Assembly: GCA_964016885.1 (NCBI GenBank)
Contig: OZ024765.1
Location: 17,794,001-17,858,000, forward strand
DNA from: Eledone cirrhosa
Taxonomy: Eukaryota
Length of the DNA: 64,000 nucleotides
Direction: 5' to 3'
A program made the position numbers and the translations under genes. A model generated the notes under the pieces. That model was not told the origin of the DNA. It was given only the letters and a program-made list of their open reading frames with translations, and did not search any database. Of the stretch, positions 57,020 through 58,980 are shown piece by piece (position 1 is the stretch's first letter; each line of letters starts with the position of its first letter).

Positions 57020-57022
<3 letters not shown>

Positions 57023-57307
57023 CCTATAACCGCATTTCGTTATAATAGCATATGGAATTGTCATATTTTCAATTTTGAGATCTTTGGTTAAGAAAGCAAG
57101 TGTAAGATTTCTGAATGCGATTGGGTGACATTTTGAAAGTGTATGGCTGCCTCGCCGCCGCCACCGTGGGGTCACTGCTCCTGCCGTTGTCATTTGTGGT
57201 TGTGTTTGATCTGTGGTGGTGGTGGTTTCTGTTGTACAGTCTCTACATTCTGTAGATGCTGGTATACGGGTTGTTACCCGTTGATGTTGTGATTGCTGCT
57301 GCTGCTG

Positions 57308-57339
<32 letters not shown>

Positions 57340-58980
57340 GGTAGTGTTGTTGTGTTTGATGAAAATGGCCGTGATGGAGATTTGAAGGAAAGGGAGAAGA
57401 AAGATGATGGTGCTTGTTGTTGTTTGTGTTGTGGTTGTGATTATTGTGTTGGTGATGCTGGTGGTGTTGGGTGTTGTGGTGATGGTTGTGGATGTCTTGT
57501 GGATAATGAGGATTGTGTTGTTGTTGTTGTTGTTGTTGATTGTTATTTTTATTATTATTGTTATTATATTTATTATGCTTTTGTTTATTGTGAATATAAT
57601 TAATACTACTACTAATGCTATTATAATTACCATTAGAAGTACTTTTTGTTTTGATATTCTTTCTGTTGCTACTACTACTACTTTTACTTTTACGAGTACT
57701 ACTACCACTAATACGACTACTGCTTTTGCTGCGTGTAGTAGTAGTAGTAGTGGTCTGGATGTTGTTGTAATTTGTAGTTCGTAACAAGTTTCGTCTTTGC
57801 GTCGTTCTTCTGTTAAGAGGGAAATCAGAGTGAGGGCTGTCGTCGCTGCATTGGTTGCTCACGAAACCGTAGGCAGGCTTCACGATCAGATGATGGAGCC
57901 CAATGCTTCGAAAGGAGACGAAACGGGATGTGAGACGACACTGCTGTTCGGGATCACCATTACCATCATCACCGCCGCCGCCTCCGCCGCTACCGATATC
58001 GTTTTCCCAGCGGTGTTTGTCTCGTTTACCATCGCCTGCAACATTAACATCATCATCATCATCATCATCATCACCGTCACCGTCAACATACCCTGGAGAA
58101 CCTCCGTTTTTCTTGTTGCTACTGACGACGCCACCGTCCGAGGCTTGTAAAATGTTACCCCGTTTCCCGCCTTCTCCTCCTCCTCCTCCTCCATCATCAT
58201 ATGCCCCTTCCATTCTCACTGTATAACTTCGACTGCCATCGGCTCTGTTCTCCTTTTCAATTGATCTCACCCCATACTTATTGAAATCTTCATCATCATC
58301 ATCATCGTTATCATCATCATCACCATCATCATCATCATCGTCATCATCATTTTTATTATTATTATTATTATTATTATATCGATGATTAGCCTCGTTCCTG
58401 TTGTTGTTTCCGGAGTCGTTGTAATCCTCATTATCATCATCATCATCATCATCGTCATCGTCGTTATTGGCGGCGGAGGTGATGGCAAAACGTTCACGTC
58501 GCTGTTTAACAGCCGTGGACTGTCTAATGTCCCGACGGTTCCTTTTGCGCGCAGAATGCATGAAACTTTCTCGTGTATTTATGACAATCATAGGGGACCG
58601 TTTTTTTCTGTGAGAGTCTAGATCTCGCATTGTCTTTGATTCGTTCGCCTTTCTACCTTTCGGCAAAATCAGACGTACTTTTTTATTGCACTTTTCACAC
58701 GCCACGTGCAACTTAATCGGTTGCTGTTGCAGTTTCTTCAGCAGGTAAATTGGCAGGTTAATTTTCTGCCAACCTTTCCGTTTTATTCTTAGTCTGACGG
58801 TTGCGAATTCAAAGAAAGTGCCATTCTTATGCTTTTCACAGACATGGAGTATTATTCGTCGTTTTCGTCTTTTGCCTTTTGTCTTCAAGTAGACTTTCAA
58901 CACGGCACTGATTAGAATTTCGTTGGAAAAAGTTGCAGCACCAAGACGGAATTCCATAACGCCGCTTTCTGAGGTGTTAC
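57020..58980 (-). CDS. Terminal coding exon of a divergent TGF-beta superfamily ligand (activin/myostatin/maverick-like prodomain) with large low-complexity inserts
   Basis: Uninterrupted ~650-codon frame. Acceptor tctctttctttctatAG at 58981-58982 (phase 1). Prodomain motifs [22 protein letters not shown]; furin site RKRNRR (58532-58549); knot segments [31 protein letters not shown] and [13 protein letters not shown]...[11 protein letters not shown]. The signal-peptide exon is not seen in the window. Confidence 0.85.

Follow-up and report, generated by a model that had tools for sequence, protein, structure and literature searches.

The locus

The window (the whole 64,000-nucleotide stretch of Eledone cirrhosa DNA that was analysed) contains the last coding exon of a gene that is, by its sequence, activin/inhibin-beta-like: the closest solved relative is activin/inhibin beta, with which the CxxC of the prodomain arm is shared. 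The features of the exon are listed below. C1 to C7 are the canonical cysteines of the mature domain, P0002 is the Octopus bimaculoides protein A0A0L8H3X9, P0003 is an ENA record, and the rows referred to are those of a 17-row family alignment in which two pairs of rows are near-duplicate.

57020..58980, minus strand: last coding exon of the activin/inhibin-beta-like gene; stop codon at 57020-57022, phase-1 acceptor inferred
58574..58957, minus strand: prodomain arm domain, activin type; CxxC at 58688-58699; 79.5% identical to P0002, 65.9% to P0003
58532..58543, minus strand: RNRR, a furin-type site placed where the family conserves one; two Arg columns do not vary across the 17 rows
57941..58531, minus strand: spacer from furin site to C1, 197 residues, acidic/Gly low-complexity (17-row alignment)
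57836..57940, minus strand: N-terminal half of the mature domain (finger 1); C1 and C2 kept, auxiliary Cys replaced by Arg, C3 by Ser
57887-57898, minus strand: LHHL in place of WxxW, finger 1
57878-57880, minus strand: Lys at the activin Ala31 position, finger 1
57134..57835, minus strand: ~235-residue poly-N/Q/H/T insert replacing the wrist helix; predicted disordered; contains CRDC and RWRRR
57023..57133, minus strand: C-terminal half of the mature domain (finger 2); Lys at the C4 position, C5 and C6 kept, C7 replaced by Tyr
57107-57109 and 57065-57067, minus strand: N-glycan sequons at activin positions 88 and 102, respectively (numbering via alignment with activin A)

The anatomy of the superfamily is present: prodomain arm, furin site and C-terminal growth-factor domain. 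The minus-strand frame is open for 666 codons (57020-59020), and the AG at 58981-58982, which is preceded by a pyrimidine tract, is the likely phase-1 acceptor; across the 652 exon codons tested (57023-58978), stops number 22 and 103 in the two remaining minus frames. The predicted arm (pLDDT mostly 77-93) has pro-activin A as its best fold match (Z 12.2, rmsd 2.3, 121 residues). The gene is single-copy, the arm search of the genome having matched this locus alone. An intact duplicate that would have freed the gene to decay was considered and rejected on the same search; relatives used as queries added only the prodomain-only paralogue described below. Exon 1, which would carry the signal peptide and alpha1 helix, was not found by profile, tblastn, phmmer or signal-peptide scans of 605 kb upstream, a stretch with two 200-N gaps (best E 0.15); the same kind of profile recovered exon 1 of the paralogue at E 0.022. 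A family-type N-terminus is also missing from all three of the closest database proteins.

Relatives and family placement

P0002 and P0003 were found among 119 candidates of an arm region search; P0004, a truncated O. vulgaris model, was added by profile search. A profile search of 1.84 billion representatives yielded 35 proteins; ten of the clusters were looked up, and their named members all come from molluscs, annotated as 'inhibin beta A chain-like' or as uncharacterised. Sequence searches of the PDB place inhibin beta chains on top (pro-activin A, E 3e-35). In the arm tree the window gene is sister to two Octopus proteins (100/96), with P0003 outside, and lies among mature-bearing rows, apart from a prodomain-only group; the mature-core tree (74 columns, no canonical activin among its rows) has 3 of 21 inner branches starred. 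On arm homology, the missing C4 and the altered wrist, the gene can be placed in a molluscan C4-less inhibin-beta-like clade.

P0002 is the likely orthologue. It shares the inserts, the absence of C4 and the two sequons, and is identical at 101/127 arm positions and 68% of the core (49/72; 66-70% for the mature core), compared with 40% of the spacer and 47% of the insert. It differs in having its knot intact and its auxiliary Cys retained. The wider clade, exemplified by scallop MyTGFB-10 (PMC10763453, as far as its accessible text goes), has in common with the window gene a K/R-rich arm, the CxxC and the lack of C4, the scallop match having been made by eye; unlike the window gene, its non-cephalopod rows keep C3 (14/14) and C7 (13/14) and have wrists of 4-88 residues.

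Cysteines of the mature domain

Four of the seven canonical mature cysteines are kept: C1 (TGT, 57938-57940), C2 (TGC, 57848-57850), C5 (TGT, 57128-57130) and C6 (TGC, 57032-57034), which are also the four that are invariant in 17/17 rows. C3 is replaced by Ser (AGC, 57836-57838), C4 by Lys (AAA, 57131-57133), C7 by Tyr (TAT, 57026-57028), and the auxiliary Cys by Arg (CGT, 57935-57937), so that the N-terminal CC reads CR. This register is set by P0002, which reads CC..CSEVC..RC..CGC in the same columns. CGT, AGC and TAT are each one base away from a Cys codon; the AAA at C4 is not. The first-pass annotation of this DNA had picked out CSDDS, KC and CGY as altered knot motifs and a spare CRDC (57236-57247), and all four are there as described; the loss of the auxiliary Cys is one that it did not mention.

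With C3 and C7 absent, the three-disulfide knot (C1-C5, C2-C6, C3-C7) is incomplete, and the residues of two of its three disulfide pairs are what remains in the window gene. The intact knot of P0002 indicates that the loss is derived. The Pfam TGF_beta search that had been proposed as a check divides the relatives: P0002 and P0003 score above the cut-off of 27 bits, whereas the window protein, at 15.5 bits, falls below it. (A TGF_beta family search of the genome likewise misses the window gene itself.) Further relatives with the C-terminal Cys pattern were sought by comparing residues 608-652 with shorter proteins, which gave no candidate, and by phmmer against the PDB, which gave nothing.

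The losses differ in age. C4 is missing in 16/17 rows, which makes its loss old; it is also missing from the scallop 'Activin/INHB-like' sequence (accessible text of PMC10763453), and the proposal that the dimerisation cysteine was given up as part of a remodelling of this gene is not supported. Both Trp of WxxW are kept in 4/17 rows and lost in 13/17, including all three closest rows. The wide loss of C4 and of WxxW indicates that the dimer cysteine and the type I surface were gone before this lineage. C7 is missing in 3/17 rows (Tyr in the window gene and P0003, Ser in P0017, which is a single sequence and the one case counted of the pair P0023 and P0017); C3 is missing in the window row alone. 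Two candidates were set aside: an apparent C3 loss in P0010 is a one-residue shift (CxxC) with C3 kept one column over, and the notion that C7 loss is common in oysters fell in part because P0023 has Phe at C7 while P0052 and P0065, from the same cluster, have Cys.

P0003 and P0017 lack C7 and keep C3, which speaks against the suggestion that C3 and C7 were discarded together in one selected event; with C7 lost while C3 stays, the loss of the pair looks stepwise. Selection for cysteine loss as such also finds no footing in the counts: 2 of 6 shared Cys were lost against 5 of 36 shared non-Cys sites changed, no clear excess. On the tree, the Tyr at C7 is explained at equal cost by two losses or by one loss and a reversal in Octopus. 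As a side observation, C7 is absent from P0003 and P0017, and so is a Cys immediately before the N-terminal CC, whereas C3 and the auxiliary Cys are retained. In P0003 and P0017 the two retained cysteines could bond with each other; the pair lost in the window gene would then be auxiliary-C3.

Constraint and predicted fold

Identity in finger 1 is 66-69% among the three closest proteins. Invariant sites make up 73/126 of the arm and 35/72 of the core (p 0.24, not a significant difference). With P0003 as outgroup, the core has 7 window-only and 8 P0002-only changes and the arm has 5 and 10, and no test is significant: accelerated evolution in this lineage, which is what these counts were used to look for, is not seen in them. 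Window-specific change is 7/42 in the core and 5/78 in the arm (p 0.11), not significant and a weak hint of relaxation. By these comparisons the mature core is still constrained, with no burst of selection seen. The claim that a real and constrained TGF-beta-family gene, with a broken knot ring and no C4-mediated covalent dimer, lies here is borne out.

AlphaFold2 run on the 17-row alignment gives the core strands a pLDDT of 85-97, values to be read with the program's insensitivity to point Cys losses and the help of knotted relatives in the alignment in mind. The two core halves align to activin A as one domain (Z 10.3, rmsd 2.5, 78 residues), and the predicted core scores a Z of about 10 against activin A and BMPs, so that the two-finger fold is a predicted one. 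The core is therefore predicted to be compatible with the TGF-beta hand; its stability without a C3-C7 bond is a separate matter.

The long segments between the folded parts are peculiar to the closest relatives. The spacer between furin site and C1 measures 197 residues in the window gene, 167 in P0002 and 179 in P0003, against 7-43 in the other 14 rows. The C3-C5 gap is 169-246 residues in the same three proteins, and is at most 21 in 8 family rows, 28-34 in 4 and 83-88 in 2; it is 26-33 in eight canonical ligands of the same genome. Most of the spacer and insert, CRDC included, has an AlphaFold2 pLDDT below 50. That CRDC might furnish replacement bonds is hard to uphold: its segment is predicted to be disordered, and the number of Cys in the insert varies (2, 4 and 0 in the three closest proteins), so that the pair is not conserved. 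Basic sites flank the insert (RWRRR at 57152-57166, RRTTQRR at ~57800-57825), where P0002 and P0003 have only weaker dibasic sites. Were the insert excised at such sites, as it might be, a two-chain domain held by C1-C5 and C2-C6 would result.

Receptor-binding surfaces

Activin A positions 31, 32, 88, 90, 92, 94, 100, 102 and 104 read K, P, N, T, A, L, I, N and T in the window protein. Type II receptor determinants named in the accessible text of PMC1802081 are Ala34, Pro35, Ser88, Leu90 and Leu100 of BMP-2 and Ser90, Lys102 and Asp104 of activin. The knuckle at 31/88/92/102 thus reads K/N/A/N, with Pro32 kept and Thr at the Ser90 position; the mapping of positions 31, 32 and 92 is that of this analysis, and the knuckle rules come from vertebrate ligands. 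The sequons at 88 and 102 occur in the window protein and P0002, and neither occurs in P0003, which keeps Lys102. With WxxW gone and the knuckle substituted and furnished with two sequons, both receptor surfaces look disabled. Agonism, already doubted in the first-pass annotation, is unlikely on this showing: wrist, WxxW, C4 and knuckle are all altered.

The same annotation had suggested an antagonist. In the portion of PMC2832003 available, activin A with its wrist helix deleted is a weak antagonist with agonism abolished, which supports the suggestion for the family as a whole. For the window protein it fares worse, since the altered knuckle and the sequons argue against a plain receptor blocker, and since, in the available text of a preprint on an engineered TGF-beta monomer (bioRxiv 10.64898/2026.03.23.713733), inhibition was lost when any knot bond was removed. 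That text treats the cystine knot as essential for TGF-beta folding and receptor engagement, and describes misfolding when any knot bond is replaced; a rescued variant, delta-AD, without the auxiliary bond or bond D, folds, binds receptor weakly and is inactive. Bond D, we infer, is C3-C7. A figure legend in the same preprint cuts the other way, giving a variant with two bonds removed enhanced binding on the yeast surface.

An Activin_recp search of the genome for a type II receptor ectodomain gave three loci, none recognised as type II. Two single-exon activin-receptor-type ectodomains (C2:110038102-110038344 and 109745776-109746048) lie about 290 kb apart on one strand; the second we take to be BAMBI-like.

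Comparison with known ligands

Activin/inhibin beta (INHBA; pro-activin A, 5HLY) is the best sequence and fold match for both arm and core and also has the furin site; the arm CxxC is described, in the accessible part of PMC7017013, for Activin, Inhibin-beta a/b, Dawdle and Maverick. Its nine mature Cys, with C4, and its wrist helix are not those of the window gene, which keeps 4 of 7 canonical Cys, has lost the auxiliary pair, C4 and WxxW, and has a 235-residue wrist, an altered knuckle and a 197-residue spacer. Inhibin alpha has also lost the wrist and, unlike a protein lacking C3, C4 and C7, has seven Cys and forms a covalent heterodimer with a beta subunit (PMC2832003, text as available). 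According to the available text of PMC11239237, WxxW is divergent in sea urchin Panda and Myostatin-like C, and the dimer Cys is missing from Myostatin-like C and lancelet inhibin/activin, in each case as in the window gene. C4-less, wrist-altered activin-like proteins are, then, already published from scallops, lancelet and sea urchin (accessible parts of PMC10763453 and PMC11239237). The difference lies in the knot: in the same accessible texts no loss of a knot bond is reported for inhibin alpha, Lefty, Panda, Myostatin-like C or lancelet inhibin/activin. The engineered mini-monomer of the preprint, as described in its available text, resembles the window protein in lacking the dimer Cys and in having a loop for the heel helix, and delta-AD is without the auxiliary bond and one bond of the ring, presumably the same set as is lost here; the mini-monomer differs in being engineered and in binding at its fingertips via TGFBR2, and delta-AD folds but is inactive.

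Within the literature covered, from which most subscription papers are absent and parts of others are missing, neither the cephalopod gene, nor a natural TGF-beta ligand without C3-C7, nor a mollusc prodomain-only gene was found described; this is a weak negative. IL-17 is a cystine-knot-fold family without one knot bond, and an incomplete knot therefore has precedent outside TGF-beta. The window gene (two bonds), P0002 (knot intact) and P0003 (C7 alone of the knot Cys missing) constitute a natural series for testing the need for the knot.

A prodomain-only paralogue

A search of the genome with a chiton relative found a second arm (C26:17277955-17278440, minus strand), which shares contig and strand with the window gene at a distance of 575 kb and whose frame stops four residues past the arm's last strand. 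About 4 kb upstream lies its exon 1, which starts like a signal peptide, includes a Cys pair and a segment resembling a helix, and has a phase-1 GT donor that matches the acceptor (profile E 0.022). The whole is:

G000:C26:17277955-17282820 (exons at L074:1453-1938 and L081:3466-3820), minus strand: complete two-exon prodomain-only activin-type gene

Of the 37 rows of the arm tree, 18 end at most 20 residues past the arm, 15 have a mature domain and 4 are unclear; some of the short rows may be truncated gene calls. The paralogue falls, with abalone and other proteins, in a 19-row group of 16 prodomain-only, 3 unclear and no mature-bearing rows (support 82/96, not starred, midpoint root). RefSeq proteins of the prodomain-only kind, 257 residues long, exist for four species of Haliotis, and in H. 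asinina the prodomain-only gene and an inhibin-like gene are on contigs equal in length. The model of abalone P0006 consists of a long N-terminal helix and the arm, with pro-activin A as best match (E 8e-10). Third among the ESM Atlas neighbours of P0006, with a score of 0.94, is an arthropod 'anachronism' cluster, in which TGFb_propeptide is listed for 56% of members and TGF_beta for none. Drosophila Anachronism is a glia-secreted inhibitor of neuroblast division, according to the accessible text of PMC5829083. The likeness of the paralogue to it, by way of the Atlas neighbourhood of P0006, is a lead only: the paralogue is possibly Anachronism-like.

What the gene may do

The reading tentatively favoured here, which we hold as possible rather than probable, is that the gene encodes a receptor-blind pro-protein whose knot is relaxing and whose prodomain serves to damp other ligands of the TGF-beta family. 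In the sequences, C4 and the type I motif are lost widely in the family, the long inserts are common to the three closest proteins, the knuckle substitutions and two sequons are shared with O. bimaculoides, and C3, C7 and the auxiliary Cys are further losses of this lineage. The two halves are predicted to close into a TGF-beta hand via C1-C5 and C2-C6, from which the insert loops out. Once receptors were no longer bound, the C3-C7 bond would have become dispensable, C7 going and then the orphaned C3, and the folded core would be retained as a scaffold for the prodomain. The pro-protein may bind or co-assemble with myostatin- or maverick-like agonist subunits, lowering their output by prodomain action in trans. 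Counted in favour, besides the family matches, the lost C4 and WxxW, the altered knuckle, the constraint on the core and the inactivity of delta-AD, are an arm at least as conserved as the core, the complete prodomain-only paralogue and the 16 prodomain-only rows of its group. Counted against are the failure to find exon 1, which should supply the signal peptide and the growth-factor-gripping helix, in 605 kb; the Lys102 and absence of sequons in P0003; and a core conserved beyond what a mere scaffold may need, which could mean a real binding partner.

Alternatively, the protein would be an unknotted monomer sitting on type II receptors, or on a co-receptor, without recruiting type I, after the manner of Lefty, Panda, inhibin alpha or the engineered mini-monomer. 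This is doubtful, though the missing C4, wrist helix and WxxW, the Thr at the Ser90 position and the kept Pro32 all suit it, as do the weak antagonism of wrist-deleted activin A (PMC2832003, in part) and the competitive inhibition by a C4-less, heel-less TGF-beta monomer (bioRxiv 10.64898/2026.03.23.713733, in part). The changes at 31, 88, 92 and 102, two of them with sequons, tell against it, as does the abolition of that monomer's inhibition by any knot-bond loss; the window protein also lacks, at activin position 90, the Pro characteristic of Lefty and Panda in the accessible text of PMC11239237.

An extension of the favoured prodomain-based reading is that the window gene is a TGF-beta ligand part-way to a prodomain-only protein, its receptor surfaces erased and masked by glycans, its wrist swollen and its knot dissolving, the paralogue being the end state, and that molluscs possess a class of secreted activin prodomains that bind and silence other TGF-beta ligands in trans; this we consider unlikely. 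The C4-less molluscan clade and its prodomain-only sister gene bear on how activin/myostatin signalling is tuned in cephalopods, in a genome whose search for a canonical activin came back empty as a lower bound.

Recent decay, with the gene functional in Octopus and here its mature domain or the whole gene turning into a pseudogene, the three Cys losses being early damage, is quite unlikely. Three Cys lost by single-base changes are what it would predict; knot-bond loss misfolds TGF-beta (preprint above, available text), exon 1 was not found, and the mature-core end branch is 0.18 against 0.035 for the arm. It must be set against 652 codons that run without stop or frameshift across long repeats, window-only changes that do not exceed the O. 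bimaculoides-only ones (core 7 vs 8, arm 5 vs 10), the conservative nature of several non-Cys changes, and the recurrence of C7 loss in P0003 and P0017.

It is improbable that the protein is still an agonist, acting as a non-covalent dimer or two-chain form through co-evolved cephalopod receptors and replacing canonical activin. No canonical C4-bearing activin was recognised among 13 PF00019 (TGF_beta) matches from 17 candidates in the genome (a lower bound), and querying with the chiton relative brought up none; finger 1 shows good conservation, and basic sites stand on both sides of the insert. The genome searches yield lower bounds only, however, and every one of wrist, WxxW, C4 and knuckle is altered, wrist deletion abolishing the agonism of activin in the available text of PMC2832003. 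An assembly error hiding a true gene with Cys at C3 and C7 is very improbable: each loss is one base off a Cys codon, but three separate substitutions, all in Cys codons and with no indel in 1,956 repeat-rich bases, would be needed, and P0003 has the same Tyr at C7.

Other observations in the window and genome

No other host genes were recognised in the window or among the long frames of 1.18 Mb scanned; window positions 256-1330, 6420-7115, 20363-20707 and 30860-31354 encode what we take to be non-LTR retrotransposon-like protein fragments. Two further loci (C14:8574314-8574622 and C27:5519026-5519331) encode TGF-beta ligands without C4 in which the knot is kept; by eye they resemble the 'AMH-like' pair of scallops. 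Two copies of a BMP5-8-like last exon (on C21 and C1589) differ by one residue; the second copy is probably an unplaced alternate haplotype. At about 18031000-18060000 of C26, upstream of the window gene, there are many short frames, nearly identical and evenly spaced, which suggests tandem arrays.
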